From Candidatus Latescibacterota bacterium (GTDB taxonomy: Bacteria > Latescibacterota > UBA2968 > GCA-2709665), in the NCBI GenBank assembly GCA_963667175.2, contig CAXXXF010000001.1, forward strand, positions 1 through 64,000: 64,000 nt of DNA, given 5' to 3'. This document shows positions 45,348 to 63,819 of the stretch, in pieces (position 1 is the stretch's first letter; every line of letters starts with the position of its first letter). Made by a program: the position numbers and the translations under genes. The notes under the pieces were generated by a model, which saw only the letters and a program-made list of their open reading frames with translations, searched no databases and was not told the DNA's origin.

Positions 45348-46370
45348 TCACACATCGGCCGCATCGGCGACGAAGCTGCAAAATGACTCGCGGATACCGG
45401 GCCGCGAATTCGGCAGTTCAGGTCGCCACTGGCGGGCGGCCATCCAACCCTGGGCGATTGCCGTGGCGGCAATCAAGGCGGGACCCTCGAGACTCGCGAG
45501 TCCGGCTGCCTGGCGCTTGACGGCCATTCTCCGGACGAGGTCCCGGTGGCCCGGACGATTCCGGTCTCCTGAATTCAGGACCTGGAGGTACGCGGGATCC
45601 AGAATCCACGGCCGGCGTTTCGGGTGGACGTCAATCAGGACCGCGCGGTCACCCCCGGGAGGCGGCTCTCTCATCAAACCGTTGCACATGTGGAAATCGT
45701 CGAAGCAGATTTCCGATCCGCATTTCTCGAAGACGAAATCCCAGTGGTCTTCAACGCTCGATAGAAGCACGTCTACGGGTCCGGGACATTGCCGCCGGAT
45801 TGCGCCTTCAAGCCAGCCGGAGACTTCGGTGCCCGTTGTGATACCCAGCGTGGGGTCGTCGATCAATTTCGCCTGCTGATAGAAGCGAATCCCGGCGTCG
45901 AGCATCAATTCGAACTCCCTGCCGCTCCAGGAATTGCCCAGAGGTCCGTACGGAATCGCTTCCAGTGCGATCCAGTGGACGTCAATGTCTCCCAGGCGGG
46001 ATCCCGCGGCATAGACCGCGGGCGTCAGGTCGGGCGCCAGGCGATGGAGTTCCCGGCACCAGAAATTCTCGCGCTCGCTCGTGCCGACCTTGACGATCAC
46101 GACAAGGCCCGTTTCCCGGTGCAGACCCCGAAGATGGACCGCGATCAGCCCGTATTCCTGGACGAAGAGCTCGATATCGCCTGCGATCGAAGTAATCGCT
46201 TCCGTCCGGTTCACGGCATCGAGAATCGACCACAAAACCTCGTCTTCGCGCGAGACCCGTCCGTTACGATCGAAGACTACCACAGCCGAATTTCCCCTGG
46301 TCCTGGCTCGCAGTTCCGAATCGCATCGTACGTTGAAGGAAACACGTTTCGGCACATCCTCGGTGTTCAA
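45348..46370 (-). CDS. APH-fold phosphotransferase-like protein
   Basis: VKV....E..W, F.D.H..N, LID. Confidence 0.65.
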   Translation of the reverse strand: MNTEDVPKRVSFNVRCDSELRARTRGNSAVVVFDRNGRVSREDEVLWSILDAVNRTEAITSIAGDIELFVQEYGLIAVHLRGLHRETGLVVIVKVGTSERENFWCRELHRLAPDLTPAVYAAGSRLGDIDVHWIALEAIPYGPLGNSWSGREFELMLDAGIRFYQQAKLIDDPTLGITTGTEVSGWLEGAIRRQCPGPVDVLLSSVEDHWDFVFEKCGSEICFDDFHMCNGLMREPPPGGDRAVLIDVHPKRRPWILDPAYLQVLNSGDRNRPGHRDLVRRMAVKRQAAGLASLEGPALIAATAIAQGWMAARQWRPELPNSRPGIRESFCSFVADAADV

Positions 46371-46714
46371 TCCTCAAATACCTCCGCCGACAGATCGAAG
46401 CTGGGTGTATGGAACAGCAACAGAGTCGACTTCACTGGCGTATCATTCCTGTATCCGAATACCGTACCCTTTGGCACCAGGCAGAAGTCTCCCCTTTCCA
46501 GGTGGTGTTCGCGGGAACCCAATGTGAAACGTACTTCTCCCTCGATCACGAAGTAGTATTTGTCCGAGCGGGTTGACCGTGCATTGCGATGGTGAATTCC
46601 GGGAGGGATCTCGATCGTGGCCATTGAAGAACTGCGATTATGGCGTGGCGTGTAGTCTCGGATTTCAAGACCTTCAAATGTGACTTCTCTTGCGGCCTTA
46701 GATTTGACGATCAT
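46367..46714 (-). CDS. Cupin domain protein
   Basis: PG..H, YFVIEGE..F, GD...VPKG...Y.N. Confidence 0.85.
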   Translation of the reverse strand: MIVKSKAAREVTFEGLEIRDYTPRHNRSSSMATIEIPPGIHHRNARSTRSDKYYFVIEGEVRFTLGSREHHLERGDFCLVPKGTVFGYRNDTPVKSTLLLFHTPSFDLSAEVFED

Positions 46715-46755
46715 CTATAGTTCCTATATGCCGATCGATTGCTGATTTCGTTTAG

Positions 46756-48188
46756 CCTTGATTCGAAGAAAATCAGGCGGCATTTCGTAGGATGGTGGAG
46801 ATTTTCCGGTATTGTTTCTCGATGTGTTTGTTGTGTTGCAGTCGCAGAGTAAGCCGTCCTTTTAGTCGGATGAGGTAGCCTGCGCGGTTGATGAGTGCGA
46901 GCCGGAGGGTGCGTATGGATTTGGGCGGCCGCCGGTTGGTGTCTTTCAAGGTACGATTGCGTTTTATCAACCCGGTTTCGATTTGGAAGTTGGCCAGGAG
47001 GTTGTGTGCGAGAATGACGAACTGTTGCCAGGCGCTATTGGCGTGGCAATCGTGTGTGGGAATGGTATCGAAGCTGAGTCCGGTCTTGAGTTCGCCAATG
47101 GCTTTTTCGTGCATGCCGCGACCTGCCATGAAGCGCCAGAGCGCGCGCATCTTGAGGGATAGATTGGTGGCCACCGCACAATATTCAAAGGTGCCGTCAT
47201 CGGGGTCGAACAGGTCCAACTGGTAGTTCTTGCGGGTTTGATGCATCACGCGTTTTTGAAAAATGGCGATGTTGAACGTACGTTTCCATTTCTTGACCGT
47301 CAGCGTTGACGTGAAGCCATCGACGCCTTTCTCGACGCGCTGCCAGTGGGTGCATTGACGGATTTGCCGCTGCAAGTCCAGGCCGCGCCAGAAGGGTACC
47401 TTGATGGCGTATGAGGCCTTGTTCTTGTTTAGCCTTTGAAGCACGTCCTGCTTGAAAGAGTCGTCATCCATACGGAATCGGAGGGTGTAGGCGTCCCCCA
47501 AGCTGTGTTCGACCTGGGTAACCATGTCCTGTAGCAACGGGATGGAGGCGCTGCCGTCATTGACGTTTCCGGGACGGTTGTGCGCCCGCAGAAAATGACC
47601 ACCGTCGGCCAGGTAGGCGGTAATCGGATAGTATTGCGATGATGCGGATTATAGCCACGACGGGCGCCGTCAACGTGCTTTCCCGTGCACAAGACCGTGC
47701 CGTCGACGTCGATCGTCAAGGTGCGGGCGCGCAACGCCTTGATTTTATGGGCAACAACGTCGACGTTGAGGGCTTTCGGGGTCTCTTGGCCCTTGTCGGT
47801 ATACCGTTTCAGAAAACTCAGATGATGCAACCGCCGGCTGCCCACCACCAGCAACCCCAGGATGACCCGGCACAGACTCGCCACACCGAAATCGCCGCCG
47901 GACACCACACCACCCAGATGAAGCCGCAATTGCTGGTTCCATTTCATGCTTCGCAAATTACGCATCAGAAGTTCCAATCCCGCATGCGACGTGAGGCCTT
48001 CACCCGTGAATTCGATCTCCAATTTGTTGTTGATACGACACCACAAATCCGCTCTCTTTCGTCTCACGGTAGGTGGCCTTTCGTTTTGGGTCAATTGGGG
48101 GTATTGTCGCTTCCCAATATACCATCACAAGAGGCCTTTTCCTATTGATAAATATGCACTTGCTTACAATAAAACTTCGTAGTCGTGG
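46756..48188 (-). mobile_element. IS1380-family element with frameshifted, internally deleted transposase
   Basis: LTSHAGL, TIDVDGTV, GYNPH, RMD, GRG..EK.IGELK, ANSAW, LAHNL; ends CCTTGATTCGAAG / CTTCGTAGTCGTGG; no target duplication seen. Confidence 0.9.
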
Positions 48189-48223
48189 CCCCGAAAATAC
48201 ACAGGTCTATTTTCGAACTAAGG

Positions 48224-48667
48224 TTAATCTCCTACCCATCCCCAACTACTGTAGAAACGGCCGTTCAGAAAGTTTTCCAACGCCTGCCGGACGTAGGGTA
48301 CCATATTGGGAGGTAGATCGTGGACCGAATGCCAAGACAGGTCGTTGCACCTGTCTGGCTCCATATTAATGACATCTCCTTGCCATCTCGAGGCGGCTAG
48401 AAAAAACGACACCCGTTCCTCCTCTACGTTCCTATGCATTACGCCAACCACTTCGATGTCGGATAGCCGGATCTCGATTCCTGCCTCCTCCCTCGCTTCA
48501 CGTATAGCTGCCGTTCTGACTTCCTCGCCGCCGTCGAGGTGGCCGGCGATCACACTGTACTTCCCGTCCTCATACCCAGTATTGTAGCGTCTCAACAGCA
48601 GAACTTCATCAGCGTCGTTCATCAGGAAGATATGTGCGTCAGGAATAAGCGTGAATTTCTCAGCCAT
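48224..48667 (-). CDS. NUDIX hydrolase
   Basis: LLRR.NTGYEDG.Y...AGH.D.GE....AAIREA.EEAGI. Confidence 0.95.
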   Translation of the reverse strand: MAEKFTLIPDAHIFLMNDADEVLLLRRYNTGYEDGKYSVIAGHLDGGEEVRTAAIREAREEAGIEIRLSDIEVVGVMHRNVEEERVSFFLAASRWQGDVINMEPDRCNDLSWHSVHDLPPNMVPYVRQALENFLNGRFYSSWGWVGD

Positions 48668-48927
48668 CTTTTACCTATATGGGGAAACTCTCGTATGGAA
48701 ATTGAAGTAGCAGGGCGTGAGACGCTCGGCGTTGTGCATCGGAAGACGACGGTTAATTCCTGTAGTAATCTGTCGGTATATCGAAAATCTCAGCAATCAA
48801 TCCCCCTTTGTCATCATTGTCGACGATCTCATCCCTTCGAATATTCTATCGACACCACTTACACCAAAATCTGACACAGCATACATTCCGGGCGAGGATT
48901 GCGCCATTGTCGTCCAATGGTGTTCGC

Positions 48928-50823
48928 TCAACCATAAAATAGCGGTCGACGGCTAATTTGCTGGGGGACAGGCAGAGGGCGGAATGGCATTCCCTCGGTC
49001 GCTCTATGGACCAACTTTACTAGACCGTCAATATTCGTCTTTATTTGCTCTCTGTTCTCGCGCGATCTAATATTCAGTCGACCCGTGGATTGTTCTTTGT
49101 TGCCTACGACAAGCATGTACGGGATCCATGCCTTTTCTCCATTTCTGATCTTCTTGCCAACGGTGTCTCCCCTGTCATCTAAGTCTACACGGATATTTCG
49201 CGAGGCAATAACGTCGCAGATTTCTTTTGCAAATGGCAGGTGACTGTCAGTAACAGGGATGACTCTCACCTGTGTGGGCGCCAGCCAGAGTGGAAACATG
49301 GGTGGAACGCCTTTGGATGCATCGACCGCGATATTCTCCAGAATTGCGCAGAGAGTTCTCTCGATGCTACCAAAACTAGACGCGTGCACGATCACGGGAC
49401 AGGGGTGCTTGCGGCCTTGTTCATCAGTAAAGCCAATATTGAATCGTTCGCCGTCCTTTATGTCCCACTGTACTGTGCTGACCTGGATATTGGATCTGTC
49501 TTCGTTGATAAACTGGTATTCGTTCTTCATCGTATAGTAGTGGCTCATGTGCGGCATGAGTTTAAAGAACGCTGGAACGTTCATTCTCTTTCCGAGGTCG
49601 ATCAGCCACGCTCTATTTGCTTCGAAAAAATCCACGGTGCCTTCCCAACCGAGAACCCAGCGCCCTTTCGCAATGATGTCGTCCATTAGACCTGCGAATT
49701 TGAGGCTCAGTATTTCAAACTCGTGGTGCGCTTCTACCTTGGTGGCGCAAGCAGCGTGCATATCCGTCATCATGAAGTTTCGGACCCGTTTGAGTCCGCT
49801 AACTTCCCCTTCCTGCTCGTTTCGGAAACACGTAGCTTCCTCGTACACTTTTAACGGTGATTGCTTATGGCTGAAGCGGACGTTTTCCATAAACGGAAAG
49901 CCGACGGGATCCGACGCATATCGGAGGTAGCAGATGCCCCGACCGCCATCAACCTGGTAGTCCCGTTCGTGAAATTCTCCCATCAATTCGCCGACGACGT
50001 TGTGGTCTCCTCGGATGAGGATGGGATTCTTCATTTCGACAGCGCCCCACTCGTGGGCGAGACGCGAGGCATAATCAAGAATTAGTTTTTGAATCAGTAC
50101 GCCGTTGGGATACCACTTGTAGTGCCCTTTTTCGGAAACATCGCAATAGTCAACCAGTTCGTGCCTCCGCATGTAATCAATGTGCTTGGGCGCTGTCTCC
50201 GATCCGACGCCCTGCGACAGTTCGTTGGAGACGAACTGTCGCAATATGCCATATACGGATTCAGATTTTAGAAAGATCGGACATCGTTCGAAATTCTCCC
50301 GAGTTATTTCGAATGGGTTGCCATCTGTGTCGACAACGACAAAACGCGTAAATTCGCTGGGTTTTCTTTCGAGTTTCTCGTGAACCTCAGTCTTTTCCAC
50401 GGGTGAATAACGCGCACTCGATTCGGAAAGAGGGTGGCCCAGACAGGAGACATCGAATGCTTTGTACCATCCAAATGGTGCCCGAACGACATTGAGCGAA
50501 CCAGCCAGTCCTGATTCGACTTTTTTCAATAGTTCAATTGCAACTAGAGACGTGCTCGGGTTTTCGGTTAAGTGGACATAGGGGTAGATGACGACCGTAT
50601 CGACGCCCACCTGCTTGGTCCGTTTGAGCACGTCGGCAACGAACTGTGCTGCTACCGACCCCGGCGACGCCGCGTCGCCCTTCTCAACCGAGATGAAGAG
50701 GACCAGACATTCCCTTTCGATCTCAACATTGCGCCGATCCGGCGGCAGCGATTCGGCCGAAGGTGTAGCCTTCTGTCTGGCCTCGAATCGGAAGTATCCC
50801 GTATGAATGGCTAAGCATCTCAT
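48928..50823 (-). CDS. thrS: Threonyl-tRNA synthetase, archaeal type
   Basis: N-terminal archaeal editing domain (YPY.HL, RAPFGWYKAF...C.GHPL.E.S), FR.EQ.GEV.GL.R.R.F.M.DMH, H.S..GSIER, P.WLAPTQVR and anticodon-binding domain; ATG 50823 has an AGGAG RBS. Confidence 0.95.
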   Translation of the reverse strand: MRCLAIHTGYFRFEARQKATPSAESLPPDRRNVEIERECLVLFISVEKGDAASPGSVAAQFVADVLKRTKQVGVDTVVIYPYVHLTENPSTSLVAIELLKKVESGLAGSLNVVRAPFGWYKAFDVSCLGHPLSESSARYSPVEKTEVHEKLERKPSEFTRFVVVDTDGNPFEITRENFERCPIFLKSESVYGILRQFVSNELSQGVGSETAPKHIDYMRRHELVDYCDVSEKGHYKWYPNGVLIQKLILDYASRLAHEWGAVEMKNPILIRGDHNVVGELMGEFHERDYQVDGGRGICYLRYASDPVGFPFMENVRFSHKQSPLKVYEEATCFRNEQEGEVSGLKRVRNFMMTDMHAACATKVEAHHEFEILSLKFAGLMDDIIAKGRWVLGWEGTVDFFEANRAWLIDLGKRMNVPAFFKLMPHMSHYYTMKNEYQFINEDRSNIQVSTVQWDIKDGERFNIGFTDEQGRKHPCPVIVHASSFGSIERTLCAILENIAVDASKGVPPMFPLWLAPTQVRVIPVTDSHLPFAKEICDVIASRNIRVDLDDRGDTVGKKIRNGEKAWIPYMLVVGNKEQSTGRLNIRSRENREQIKTNIDGLVKLVHRATEGMPFRPLPVPQQISRRPLFYG

Positions 50824-50855
50824 TGTTGAAGCACTCCTAGCTAAAATGACCAAAC

Positions 50856-50884
50856 AAAAAAAACCACTGCCGCGTCGGCAGTGG
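50856..50884 (-). terminator. Intrinsic terminator (attenuator) upstream of thrS
   Basis: CCACUGCCG-ACG-CGGCAGUGG followed by eight U. Confidence 0.9.
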
Positions 50885-50922
50885 GCTCAGAGAAATAGGA
50901 AGTTTATGTTTTTTGAACTTGA

Positions 50923-51072
50923 TCAGGTCTCCGAGGGATGCACCGCCGTTGGGTTGTTGGTGGGCGATGTGGTTGAGGTCATTTGATCGGTAGTTCGGGT
51001 AGACTTCTCTCCTGCCAGAGCGACTGCCCCGCTTCTGTTAACGATAGTATTTTGAATCAAAGCAGACGTCAT
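50923..51072 (-). CDS. Thr-rich leader peptide (49 aa; below the ORF-track size cutoff)
   Basis: MTSALIQNTIVNRSGAVALAGEKSTRTTDQMTSTTSPTNNPTAVHPSET*; 11 Thr; GGAG RBS. Confidence 0.85.
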   Translation of the reverse strand: MTSALIQNTIVNRSGAVALAGEKSTRTTDQMTSTTSPTNNPTAVHPSET

Positions 51073-51104
51073 TGCAATCTCCGCAGTTTCGGTGTATCGT
51101 GACT

Positions 51105-51133
51105 AAGATATGACTTCGACCAGACCATGTCAA
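51105..51133 (-). promoter_or_regulatory. Sigma70 promoter for leader-thrS
   Basis: TTGACA-17 nt-TATCTT on the minus strand. Confidence 0.75.
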
Positions 51134-51152
51134 GTCATTTGTCCGCCATTCA

Positions 51153-51584
51153 CCTTGATTCGAAGAGAATCAGGCGGCATTTCGTAGGATGGTGGAGATT
51201 TTCCGGTATTGTTTCTCGATGTGTTTGTTGTGTTGCAGTCGCAGAGTAAGCCGTCCTTTTAGTCGGATGAGGTAGCCTGCGCGGTTGATGAGTGCGAGCC
51301 GGAGGGTGCGTATGGATTTGGGCGGCCGCCGGTTGGTGTCTTTCAAGGTACGATTGCGTTTTATCAACCCGGTTTCGATTTGGAAGTTGGCCAGGAGGTT
51401 GTGTGCGAGAATGACGAACTGTTGCCAGGCGCTATTGGCGTGGCAATCGTGTGTGGGAATGGTATCGAAGCTGAGTCCGGTCTTGAGTTCGCCAATGGCT
51501 TTTTCGTGCATGCCGCGACCTGCCATGAAGCGCCACAGCGCGCGCAACTTGAGGGATAGATTGGTGGCCACCGCACAATATTCG
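51153..51584 (-). mobile_element. Truncated second copy of the IS1380 element (transposase 3' end and terminal repeat)
   Basis: Near-identical to 46756-47187. Confidence 0.92.
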
Positions 51585-51594
51585 AATTCCGCCA

Positions 51595-52065
51595 GGGTGA
51601 GTCATCCGCGAAAACTCGTGGTTTTGTTGTATCACCGGCTGTATTTCGACCGTGTGATGTTGCAAGGTTCGCAGGGGTATGGATTCATTTCGATCTCCAG
51701 GAAACGCGAGCATTTGTCCTGCTCTTGGCTTTTTCCTGCATCCGGTCTTGATCCTGTTCCTGGTTTCTAATCCTGCTTAATCCTTTCAATCCTGAGTCCA
51801 CTCCGAAAAGTGAGATTTCCGCAATTTCCACCAATTTAGGTCAGGTACGACCATTTTTCGAAATTATCCATATCCACATAAATCATTAATTATCATAGTG
51901 TTATATTAATCCTTGTTTCGGTTTGCTTCTGGCTAAAACACCATTTACGACCTTGTCGGAGCCGATTTTGACTTTTCGGAGTGGACTCAATCCTGTTAAT
52001 CCTGATCCGTTTTGGTTTTTATCCTGCTCATCCTGTCCATCCATGTAGGCTTGGGTTATTGAATT
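51595..52065 (+). repeat. Non-coding element family C, copy interrupted by a MITE
   Basis: GGGTGAGTCATCCGCGAAAAC..GGTTTTG.TGTAT.AC, GTGATG.TGC, GAGCATTTG.CCT, CATCCTGTCCATCCATG colinear with 56129-56370. Confidence 0.7.
51794..51988. mobile_element. 195-bp MITE with 18-bp perfect TIRs and a 6-bp target duplication
   Basis: GAGTCCACTCCGAAAAGT / ACTTTTCGGAGTGGACTC flanked by AATCCT on both sides; AT-rich interior. Confidence 0.9.
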
Positions 52066-52093
52066 GTGGAGGCCAGCGCTGAACCCACGAACA

Positions 52094-53185
52094 TCAGAAG
52101 TGGTCGGGCGACCAGAAGATGACCTCGCGGCGAGGGAACCACTCGTCGAGTTGGCGGGCTTCTGCGGTCGACAGCGAGATACCGCGGGCGCGGATGATGG
52201 GGGCCAAGTCGCTGCCGGACGCCTCGCCAAAGAGGAGCCGGCACATGAGATCGGCAGGCAGCCTGCGGTACAGCGGCGTCGCTTCCGGTGCGGCCCTGCC
52301 GACGAGCGATCCGAGGTCGAAGGGCAGCACCATCATCGAATTGTCGCCCGTGATTTCCAGGTCGGCGGCAGCCGTAACGACCAGGGCGTCGACAAAGGGG
52401 TGGCTGTGCGGGATCGCTCCGCTTATTCGCGTCACGCCGGCCTCCGCGCACGCGTCAAGCACGCGCTGCACAAGAATATCCAGGGCCGGTCCGTTTTCGT
52501 AAGCGACCTCATGCACCACTGCGCCGTTGTCGTCCGCTTCCCAATTGATGTATCCAGCCAGTCCTTCCGGGCCGCGGATGACGGTCGCGGGCAGGACACC
52601 CCGCACGCGAGACGGCGCGTAGTCCCAGTACGGTCGCGGACGCAACATGCTGCCGCTGCGACCGGCGTTGTTGCACTGATAGAGCGCAACCGTCTCCTCC
52701 AGATCACGCGTCTCGTCGAAGGGTAGCATCTCCAGCGCGGACCGACCCGGCTTCGGGGCACGGCGCAGCTCGGCCCGAAAACCCGTCAGCGGCACACAGC
52801 ACCAGCCGAGACGCAGGTAAAAGCGTGCCGGGATCGCGGAGAATAGCAGGCCCAGTTCGTAGCCATCGTCGCGCATGTACTCTGCGGCATGCTCCATCAA
52901 CCGCGTCGCGATGCCGCGCTCCCGAAAGTCCGGATGCGTGGTGACACCGCCAATGCCGCCCATCCGGACGGGTGTGGCGCCGAGGTGGACCCGGCGGTCC
53001 CAGATCCGCAGCGTCGAGACAATCCGGCCTCCGACAACGACAACCGGCGTCTGCGATGGACGCCAGGTCGGATCGCCTTCGATGTAGCCCGTGTAGCGGT
53101 CCCGGCCCGCGGGATTGTGCACCGCACAGAGCAGGTCCAGGAGTTCGTCGAGCTCCGACTCGCGGATGGGGCGAATGGTTTCCAT
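52094..53185 (-). CDS. Eis-like tandem GNAT acetyltransferase
   Basis: MGGIGGV.THP.FR.RG.A, FY.RLGW, second GNAT-like lobe. Confidence 0.85.
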   Translation of the reverse strand: METIRPIRESELDELLDLLCAVHNPAGRDRYTGYIEGDPTWRPSQTPVVVVGGRIVSTLRIWDRRVHLGATPVRMGGIGGVTTHPDFRERGIATRLMEHAAEYMRDDGYELGLLFSAIPARFYLRLGWCCVPLTGFRAELRRAPKPGRSALEMLPFDETRDLEETVALYQCNNAGRSGSMLRPRPYWDYAPSRVRGVLPATVIRGPEGLAGYINWEADDNGAVVHEVAYENGPALDILVQRVLDACAEAGVTRISGAIPHSHPFVDALVVTAAADLEITGDNSMMVLPFDLGSLVGRAAPEATPLYRRLPADLMCRLLFGEASGSDLAPIIRARGISLSTAEARQLDEWFPRREVIFWSPDHF

Positions 53186-62035: not shown

Positions 62036-62836
62036 ATGGACAATATCGGACAAGCATTCGACGACTCCGAGAATGCGGCTGAAACAGCCCGCCAATCCGC
62101 CGCCAAACTGGTGAATTTGACCAGACGCCTGCAAAAGGCAGCCAAAGAGGGTAACATCGGCGCAATCAAGAAGACGCGAGTCGGGCTCAGCGACGCGCTT
62201 GAGAACCTGACGCAGGCGGTGACGCACGCGATCCAATCCTGGCCCTATGACGATGATGAATTGGTAGAATATCTCAAGGGTGGCTATACACAAGAGTTGC
62301 GTCGCGTCGCCTCGGAAAAGGGACTGGAAATTCATTTGCGGGACGAACAGCTGATCTCACACCCGTCCATCGTGCGAATATTACCCGAGGATGAGGCGAT
62401 CCGAATTGACAACAAGAAGATCTCGACCATTAAGCCTTCCTACCTGTCCGATCTGCTGATCGCGAACCAGAACAAGCGCAGCCGCTTCTCGGCTAAGCGG
62501 TTTCTGGAAGCCCTGTACAGGGTTTACCTGGAGCTTGTGAAGGAAGACGCTTCGGATAGACTCATGAAAGGCGATTCCGGGCGTGTGGTACTCCTGGCAA
62601 GAATCTACAGGTTGTTCACGTCGCTGCCGGGTAGCGGGCGAGATTACGCAAAAATTGACTTTGCACGTGACCTTTACCAGTTGGAAACAAGCGGCGTGAC
62701 AGAGACGACGTCAGGGGCCAGAGTATTTTTCCACGCGTCCACCGGCACTCGAGGCGCAAGTAACGTATTCACCTTTGTGGGTCCACAGGGCCAGGACATC
62801 AAGTACTTCGGCATTCGATTTACAAAGGATGACTGA
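62036..62836 (+). CDS. Hypothetical protein, first gene of the DUF2791 operon
   Basis: 266-aa ORF with helical N-terminus; TGATG overlap with the next gene. Confidence 0.75.
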   Translation: MDNIGQAFDDSENAAETARQSAAKLVNLTRRLQKAAKEGNIGAIKKTRVGLSDALENLTQAVTHAIQSWPYDDDELVEYLKGGYTQELRRVASEKGLEIHLRDEQLISHPSIVRILPEDEAIRIDNKKISTIKPSYLSDLLIANQNKRSRFSAKRFLEALYRVYLELVKEDASDRLMKGDSGRVVLLARIYRLFTSLPGSGRDYAKIDFARDLYQLETSGVTETTSGARVFFHASTGTRGASNVFTFVGPQGQDIKYFGIRFTKDD

Positions 62837-63819
62837 TGCACGACAAGCATACCATCTCTCTCAAGGACTGGCTTCAGGTCATTGACGAAGAGTACCTTTC
62901 GTCGTTTGTGCGCGGTGGGGGCGCGTCGGTCAAATTCGCATTGCCGTCAGACGAGGGTTCCAGGGCTGGATTGTACGCAGAAGTGGAGGCCAGTTGCCAC
63001 GAGTCGGACTATCTTTTCATTAAGCTGAACGCAGAGACGATGCGAGCGCACATGCCGCAGGACTTTTTTTTCAGGTTCGCCAGCCAGGTCGATTGGCGTC
63101 TGACGGCTCGCCGTATGATCCTGAGGCTCGCGGCGGAGCAGGGCTACCGGATTGATGGAATACGTCCCCGCGAGGACGGCAACGTCTTCGACGCCATCGC
63201 GACAGCCAATGGTCTCGAATCGGAGTTCGTCCTTGGAAATCTTAGGCTGATGATACAGAATCGTGTCTTCAGGAACACGAAGATGGCAAGAGATTTCCGG
63301 GTGTGTATGAGCCATCTTTGCACGGAAGAGAATAGCCGTGGCGGGTACACAGGCGAGCCGTTGTTGGATTGGCTGACCGGAGAGAACACGCGAATCAGCG
63401 GCGTCCGGCCCTTTTCCATCTATACAAGTATCAATCGCAACACTGCCAGATACTTCATCGAATCGGCCTTCTACTGGATTCATCACGTTGGGCACTCCGG
63501 AACGGTGGTGTTGTTTGACAACGCCCGCGTCACGGTGGCGAGAAACCCGAAGGACGGAGTGCGCTACTACACCAGAGCGATGGCGATGGAACACTACGAA
63601 TTACTGCGGGAATTTATCGACGGCGCTGACCGGTTGACGAGTACGATGCTGGTCGTCGTCACCAACAGCGATTTCCTCGACGACAGCGGCGACCGCGGGT
63701 CCCGAGGCTACGGGATATACGAGGCCCTGCGCACGCGGGTGATGGACGACGTTCGAGATAGGAACCGGGTAAACCCGGTCGCATCGCTGGTGCGGCTGAC
63801 ATCGGAAGGTGGCAGGTAG
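62836..63819 (+). CDS. DUF2791 / BrxD-like ATP-binding-domain protein with degenerate Walker A
   Basis: G.ASVKF, L.WL.GE, G.SG.VVLFD, LREFID, Y.AL..R; lacks GxxGxGKT. Confidence 0.65.
   Translation: MHDKHTISLKDWLQVIDEEYLSSFVRGGGASVKFALPSDEGSRAGLYAEVEASCHESDYLFIKLNAETMRAHMPQDFFFRFASQVDWRLTARRMILRLAAEQGYRIDGIRPREDGNVFDAIATANGLESEFVLGNLRLMIQNRVFRNTKMARDFRVCMSHLCTEENSRGGYTGEPLLDWLTGENTRISGVRPFSIYTSINRNTARYFIESAFYWIHHVGHSGTVVLFDNARVTVARNPKDGVRYYTRAMAMEHYELLREFIDGADRLTSTMLVVVTNSDFLDDSGDRGSRGYGIYEALRTRVMDDVRDRNRVNPVASLVRLTSEGGR

Follow-up and report, generated by a model that had tools for sequence, protein, structure and literature searches.

Vecchione and Sello reportedly found, in 2010, that the auxiliary gene trpRS1 of Streptomyces coelicolor, which encodes an antibiotic-resistant enzyme, is induced by ribosome-mediated attenuation upon failure of the housekeeping enzyme. 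Putzer is likewise said to have described, in 1992, how thrZ of Bacillus subtilis, a normally silent second gene for threonyl-transfer RNA synthetase (ThrRS), is induced by antitermination when charging of tRNA-Thr drops. Here, we analyze a stretch of 64,000 nucleotides (nt) from Candidatus Latescibacterota bacterium (GenBank assembly GCA_963667175.2, contig CAXXXF010000001.1, positions 1 to 64,000; the whole stretch is called the window below). It carries an archaeal-type ThrRS gene, thrS, preceded by a threonine-rich leader. Judged from its sequence, this leader is probably a transcription attenuator of the leader-peptide kind, in which ribosomes gauge charged tRNA-Thr and thereby control an auxiliary enzyme.

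Functionally, trpRS1 is the nearest parallel, although it concerns tryptophan rather than threonine and it is for trpRS1 that resistance of the enzyme is reported to have been demonstrated. The thrZ gene differs in its mechanism, in that T-box RNAs read uncharged tRNA directly and have no translated leader. The threonine leader of Escherichia coli, thrL, shares with the window leader a Thr-rich peptide, mutually exclusive helices, an intrinsic terminator, and the sensing of charged tRNA-Thr through the position of the ribosome. However, thrL controls biosynthesis genes, not a synthetase, and has no sequence or covariance-model similarity to the window leader, which is longer (49 codons), spreads its Thr codons over 18 codons, and has no Ile codons in the cluster.

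Leader-peptide attenuation of aminoacyl-tRNA synthetase genes has been published before, and an earlier note on this DNA, which implied that such control of thrS would be new, overstated the case. Seliverstov (2005, PMC1262725) describes leader-peptide attenuators for pheST of gamma-proteobacteria and for trpS and leuS of Streptomyces. The E. coli pheM/pheST and Streptomyces trpS/leuS systems resemble the window leader in that a synthetase gene is the target, but the amino acid, enzyme family, and phyla are others and the genes are housekeeping or actinobacterial ones. PMC2965389 reports a leader-peptide attenuator before a hisS paralogue in bacilli, as well as autoregulation of E. coli thrS, and a reference title in PMC4787780 has thrS and thrZ of B. 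subtilis under T-box control. Closest by target is Streptomyces lividans TK24, for which a section of Droste (2021, PMC8079986) lists leader peptides before alaS, trpS, leuS, and thrS. The thrL proposed there is, like ours, a leader peptide upstream of thrS that is read as threonine-dependent. However, this peptide of 18 residues, two of them Thr, is leaderless, lacks a U tract, and precedes a bacterial-type thrS, whereas the window element has 11 Thr, a canonical terminator, and counterparts in other phyla. Our literature search found no bacterial case of an archaeal-type thrS behind a Thr leader.

Anatomy of the leader

The whole leader and thrS lie on the minus strand, and their coordinates are given 5' to 3' along that strand. 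The elements are as follows.

51133..51105, minus strand: sigma-70-like promoter; -35 hexamer (51133-51128) equal to the consensus, 17-nt spacer, -10 hexamer (51110-51105) with 4/6 matches, 10/12 in total
51082-51079, minus strand: Shine-Dalgarno site GGAG of the upstream open reading frame (uORF), 6 nt 5' of its ATG (51072)
51072-50923, minus strand: uORF for the leader peptide, 49 codons plus stop, 11 of them Thr codons
51000-50947, minus strand: Thr-codon cluster, the presumed stalling zone, with 8 Thr within codons 25-42
50969-50963, minus strand: segment 1, inside the Thr cluster, pairs with segment 2
50948-50941, minus strand: segment 2, a near copy of the terminator 3' arm, with segment 1 or segment 3 as partner
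50935-50886, minus strand: middle hairpin (arms 50935-50928 and 50893-50886), nested in the 2:3 helix, conserved, and absent from the earlier note
50883-50876, minus strand: segment 3, in the terminator 5' arm
50884-50864, minus strand: intrinsic terminator (segments 3:4), a 9-base-pair stem with 7 G-C pairs and a 3-nt loop, -15.8 kcal/mol, followed by U8 (50863-50856)
50838-50834, minus strand: thrS Shine-Dalgarno site AGGAG, kept in relatives
50823-48928, minus strand: thrS, archaeal-type ThrRS, 631 amino acids (aa) with an N-terminal editing domain

The promoter, the GGAG, the 49-aa uORF with 11 Thr (9 in the last 25 codons), the 9-base-pair hairpin with U8, and the thrS ribosome-binding site all lie where the earlier note had placed them, and its segments 1-4 are correct to within one base and pair as it had claimed. 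Thr codons stand at positions 2, 9, 25, 27, 28, 32, 34, 35, 38, 42, and 49 of the uORF. Given the local base composition, 11/49 has a binomial P of 0.0036 and 9/25 in the last 25 codons a P of 2e-4. The AC dinucleotides of the uORF fall 11, 3, and 0 times in the three codon phases. The 5' arm of the middle hairpin spans the final uORF codons ahead of the stop.

A promoter scan found the site at 51133..51105 to be the sole promoter-like one within 50500-51500 (shuffles gave a mean of 0.7). The terminator U tract is 32 nt from the thrS ATG (50823) and, because no other promoter-like site occurs in that interval, thrS would be transcribable only through the terminator. The leader anatomy is complete, and it is beyond chance. 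Three marks of a leader-peptide attenuator are in place, namely a uORF equipped with a ribosome-binding site, a cluster of cognate codons, and a terminator with no later promoter. Rfam returned zero matches at E up to 10 in 46000-53000, including to its Thr_leader and T-box models, and, because no Rfam model matches, the leader is not a member of either family.

Alternative helices and the proposed switch

The 1:2 helix has seven pairs and the 2:3 helix eight, with one G-U in each. The earlier note had suggested that the alternative structures be compared. The state with 1:2, the middle hairpin, and the terminator is predicted at -33.9 kcal/mol, against -21.4 for 2:3 with the middle hairpin. 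The former wins as long as segment 1 is free. Until segment 4 has been transcribed, 2:3 together with the middle hairpin gives the minimum free energy (MFE) fold (-23.9 kcal/mol). When segment 1 is masked, as by a ribosome stalled at codons 32-35, the terminator and antiterminator states come close (-24.5 vs -21.4 kcal/mol). Segment 2 is also the best duplex partner of the terminator 5' arm in the window (-14.0 kcal/mol). In the relatives G019 and G015 (G and L denote our handles for genomes and loci), the 2:3 antiterminator is the MFE fold once the terminator 3' arm is removed, and in six of 10 leaders the best partner of the terminator 5' arm lies within the last 26 nt of the uORF. Overall, these calculations make the alternative helices energetically plausible.

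We infer from this arrangement ribosome stalling, a helix switch, and induction of thrS, as follows. Transcription would start ~25 nt 5' of the uORF. When Thr-tRNA is plentiful, the ribosome would pass the Thr cluster, after which either 1:2 would form in its wake or, on nearing the stop, it would itself hinder segment 2. With segment 2 unavailable, the 3:4 terminator would form and RNA polymerase would halt at U8, 32 nt 5' of thrS. If threonine starvation or a failing housekeeping ThrRS made Thr-tRNA scarce, the ribosome would stall in codons 25-42 and cover segment 1. Segment 2 would then pair with segment 3 around the middle hairpin, no terminator would form, and thrS would be transcribed.

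The gene behind the leader and the canonical ThrRS

The window ThrRS matches the Pfam editing domain tRNA-Thr_ED (PF08915) over residues 1-136 (E 2e-38), the class II core (PF00587), and the HGTP anticodon domain (PF03129). It scores 588.7 bits against NCBIfam NF003068, the archaeal-type equivalog (cut-off 484). By these profile matches, the product is a full-length archaeal-type ThrRS. A start at TTG 50853, as given in the open reading frame (ORF) list, is unlikely, and ATG 50823 agrees with the N-termini of homologues.

The genome of the window also encodes a canonical bacterial thrS on another contig (TIGR00418, 721.6 bits, cut-off 383.65), so the window gene is a second ThrRS copy. This canonical gene (contig C17) has a consensus-like promoter and a ~290-nt leader with a short G+C hairpin followed by eight U (L002:440-760). 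Rfam matched nothing there at E up to 1, and the fold z-score is -1.1.

Threonine makes up 25 of the 631 residues of the window ThrRS (4.0%). The Thr share of the last 475 residues does not separate orthologues with a leader from those without (means of 3.55% for eight proteins vs 3.71% for 56), and the idea of a Thr-depleted enzyme was rejected for the window. The bacterial archaeal-type clade is rather Thr-poor on the same measure (1.9-4.8%, mean ~3.7%), with the lowest value, 1.9%, in L149.

The editing domain is wholly missing in several orthologues (L004:1498-2946, L053:2492-3940, L147:1459-2943, L149:778-2223, L152, and L158). Such proteins begin at the equivalent of window residues 152-158, and they include the closest relatives, in G019 and G015. 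In these two, homology of the leader with that of the window reaches the thrS ATG, at which the sequences diverge at once. From their sequences, the editing-less orthologues look like stand-alone catalytic forms of ThrRS, which also occur in some Crenarchaeota.

Conservation among close relatives

In the two Latescibacterota genomes G019 and G015, the leader aligns from the -35 hexamer through the thrS ATG at ~73% identity, and in G019 the promoter hexamers and their spacing are identical to those of the window. Insertions and deletions in the uORF measure 3, 6, 12, and 15 nt across the relatives, all multiples of three, so the reading frame is kept. The Thr core and the last seven codons are retained, as are both Shine-Dalgarno sites (the GGAG block of the uORF in both G019 and G015). 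Conservation within the leader peaks in segment 2, in the two arms of the middle hairpin, and in the terminator.

A relic of the leader occurs in genome G017 (L162:1489-3012), where a 1.3-kb insertion carrying transposase-like ORFs splits the uORF. Its terminator is intact, and an ORF resembling a methyltransferase that uses S-adenosylmethionine follows in place of thrS. With this relic, four related leaders (window, G019, G015, and G017) could be compared for covariation of helices that were derived from one of them. Segment 2 is invariant in 4/4. The share of paired alignment cells is 88% for the segment 1 helix and 94% for the middle hairpin. The sole compensatory change in the terminator concerns a pair that reads A-U in the window, G-C in G017, and A·C in both G019 and G015, and the same base change in G017 leaves the 2:3 helix paired, as U-G. 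With four sequences this similar, covariation neither proves nor contradicts the helices. Of the two features that the earlier note had proposed to look for in homologues, the Thr-rich uORF is kept in the relatives and recurs elsewhere, and the signal of covarying stems is thin and comes to one compensatory terminator pair.

Recurrence before distant orthologues

The bacterial clade of archaeal-type ThrRS spans many phyla, at 55-72% identity to the window enzyme. We scanned 72 distinct bacterial loci, each with 100 nt or more of upstream sequence, for a terminator-like element within 130 nt of thrS and found one in 11. In all 10 examined of these 11, an ORF stops 54-62 nt ahead of the T tract. 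The peptide of L110 has 16 Thr among 40 residues, including runs of eight and five, followed by L122 (8/34), L053 (7/35), and L147 (5/29), and the three Latescibacterota leaders have 11/49, 9/51, and 10/54. The L149 leader has seven Thr in its last 31 codons (7/40 if counted from an upstream TTG start). L050 is preceded by a similarly built leader with a five-T tract, which lies outside the T-tract filter and is thus additional to the 11.

Among 83 upstream regions, the two highest Thr densities (9 and 8 per 12 codons) are those of L110 and L122, and both clusters lie directly 5' of the strongest terminators found, with 13 and 12 pairs, respectively. Strong promoters also precede several of these leaders (12/12 matches in L149 and 11/12 in L053). 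Leaders of different lineages have no evident sequence in common, and the G+C hairpin followed by 6-8 U is kept across lineages at a fixed distance from the uORF stop. No conserved operon partner was found: each lineage has other genes around the leader-thrS unit, and what is conserved is leader plus thrS. No Rfam model matched at the gathering score in 11 related loci.

Leader-bearing thrS genes occur across Latescibacterota, Armatimonadota, and Planctomycetota. In a FastTree phylogeny of 70 catalytic-plus-anticodon regions, they take about five positions within one subclade of 40 rows, and none is found in the deeper bacterial clades. To judge by this tree, the distribution is compatible with a single origin followed by many losses as well as with repeated gain or transfer. 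An archaeal origin of the leader was considered and rejected, as 40 archaeal thrS loci have no Thr-rich upstream ORF (at most 4 Thr per 12 codons).

Two further upstream arrangements were seen in the scan. In the Armatimonadota locus L053 (2411-2506), the terminator is followed by a second small ORF that has a Shine-Dalgarno site to itself, contains five Thr codons, and overlaps the start codon of thrS; it may add another level of Thr sensing, at translation. In a leaderless subclade (L042, L044, L047, L059, and L041), a stretch ~30-160 nt upstream of thrS is conserved, with similar frame translations. It has no Rfam match at the gathering score in L042, L044, and L059, and may represent an undescribed thrS leader RNA.

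Leaders and genomes with two ThrRS genes

A canonical ThrRS was found in all five leader-bearing genomes examined (G000, which is that of the window, and G168-G171). Among six leaderless carriers of the archaeal-type gene, it was found in two (G175 and G047) and not in G172, G173, G174, and G176. Most of these are metagenome-assembled genomes of unknown completeness, because of which a missing canonical ThrRS is weak evidence. The comparison nevertheless supports the statement that the leader marks the archaeal-type ThrRS when it is a spare, and that an archaeal-type gene that is the sole ThrRS mostly has no Thr leader, as the attenuator reading predicts. The backup role that the earlier note had assigned to this synthetase is supported by the canonical thrS in the same genome and by the association of leaders with two-ThrRS genomes.

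Weighing the attenuator against other explanations

Several observations weigh against an attenuator. Taken locus by locus, the 2:3 duplex is not significantly better than shuffled sequence, being matched by 27 of 200 shuffles in the window and by 6 to 155 of 200 at other loci, and the fold of the whole leader is unremarkable (z -1.5). Segment 2 ends 15 nt ahead of the stop codon, so a ribosome at the stop barely covers it, and termination under plenty must for that reason rely on the 1:2 helix, the anti-antiterminator, forming first. RNAalifold proposes a second candidate for that role: its preferred partner of segment 2 is 50996-50988, a stretch that covers Thr codons 27-28 and shows one compensatory pair. 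Covariation is thin, with most pairs invariant, one compensatory pair in the terminator, and none in the 1:2, 2:3, and middle helices. Shuffle controls were not exceeded (361/500 and 500/500 shuffles reach the observed values). Among the distant leaders, those of L039 (3/20) and L158 (3/28) hold only three Thr codons each, and in the terminator-bearing L045 the hairpin is weak and a Thr-rich ORF is missing. G047, with a full-length copy in the same phylum, has two ThrRS types yet no leader. Finally, a crude scan of the window genome found no other convincing leader-peptide attenuator among 254 terminator/uORF pairs; the best candidates other than thrS were a five-Leu ORF and a Thr-rich ORF, neither of them ahead of a related gene.

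On the other side stand the in-frame conservation of the uORF, its recurrence across phyla, the lack of a separate thrS promoter, and the plausible helix energies, which together support the Thr attenuator that the earlier note had proposed.

Three other explanations were considered. The uORF and terminator could form an independent small gene, for a 49-aa protein or a short RNA, with thrS expressed only by leaky read-through and no sensing of Thr. The peptide itself could matter, given that its last seven residues are nearly invariant and that its Thr-poor N-terminal part is also conserved among the Latescibacterota copies. Nevertheless, the peptides of other lineages share only a high Thr content and the spacing between stop and terminator, the element always stands directly ahead of thrS while the other neighbors differ, and the conserved nucleotide blocks coincide with helix arms, all of which makes a separate gene very unlikely.

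We give slightly less credence still to a trans-acting factor that would control termination by binding the leader RNA, either ThrRS, as at the operator of E. coli thrS, or uncharged tRNA-Thr, as in a T-box, with the uORF incidental. ThrRS autoregulation and the T-box are, after all, the two established controls of thrS. However, the Rfam searches described above found neither a T-box nor any other family (in the window or in the 11 related loci), the terminator loop has 3 nt, and no hairpin resembling an anticodon arm lies between the terminator and the thrS Shine-Dalgarno site. Such a factor would also leave the recurring in-frame Thr codons of unrelated leaders unexplained.

Least probable of all is an effect of the uORF on translation or messenger RNA stability (e.g., ribosome traffic that unmasks the thrS ribosome-binding site), with a hairpin and U tract that are no working terminator: the RNAalifold pairing of the leader 5' end with the thrS Shine-Dalgarno region and the second Thr-rich ORF of L053 that overlaps the thrS start would speak for it, but the long-range pairing is mismatched in the window, and every lineage has the strong G+C hairpin with 6-8 U at a fixed distance from the uORF stop.

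Genomic setting and mobility

The leader-thrS unit of the window lies between two copies of one insertion sequence (IS), as follows.

51571-51153, minus strand: truncated IS copy, the 3' end of a DDE_Tnp_1_4 transposase gene, ending ~20 nt upstream of the -35 hexamer
48224-48667: NUDIX gene, between thrS and the full IS copy
48150-46756, minus strand: complete copy of that IS, lying downstream of both thrS and the NUDIX gene; the upper boundary is approximate

The copies are 100% identical over at least 300 nt (46756-47055 vs 51153-51452). Two IS copies in direct orientation around a leader-thrS-NUDIX unit look like a composite-transposon arrangement. Elsewhere in the window, an ORF at 62836-63816 has a Pfam match to BrxC/BrxD (BREX ATPase; E 3e-8).

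A search at E up to 1e-60 found archaeal-type thrS in six of 168 genomes of the phylum and in none of the 14 other genomes of the window's genus. Three of the six carriers have a damaged gene, fragmented in G015 and interrupted by an in-frame stop in both G083 and G037. At least two fragments make up the G015 gene (L019, L005); the ~1.5 kb that separates them includes an ORF of 476 aa in the opposite orientation. All five other carriers in the phylum also have a canonical ThrRS. Taken together, the archaeal-type thrS behaves as an accessory, mobile, and often decaying element.

A bolder reading, which we consider improbable, is that promoter, Thr leader, and archaeal-type thrS constitute a self-contained, horizontally mobile cassette that supplies an inducible spare ThrRS, in several lineages an editing-less, error-tolerant emergency enzyme. 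If so, the spare would be switched on when the housekeeping enzyme is starved or poisoned by natural ThrRS inhibitors. Inhibitor resistance of the window ThrRS is conjecture, and no biosynthetic cluster for a ThrRS inhibitor was seen among 10 neighboring proteins.

Implications

If the attenuator reading is right, the Thr leader extends a classical type of switch to a new gene family, in bacteria not yet cultured. Its mechanism being a known one, the advance is one of scope and not of principle, and a leader family that crosses phyla is moderately interesting and in principle unsurprising. To our knowledge, almost nothing is known of gene control in these uncultured phyla, and the leader adds to phyla without cultured members a regulatory RNA family that is absent from Rfam. 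It offers a simple sequence mark by which auxiliary and housekeeping copies of ThrRS can be separated in metagenomes, as well as a testable case of duplicated synthetases that are kept silent until needed.

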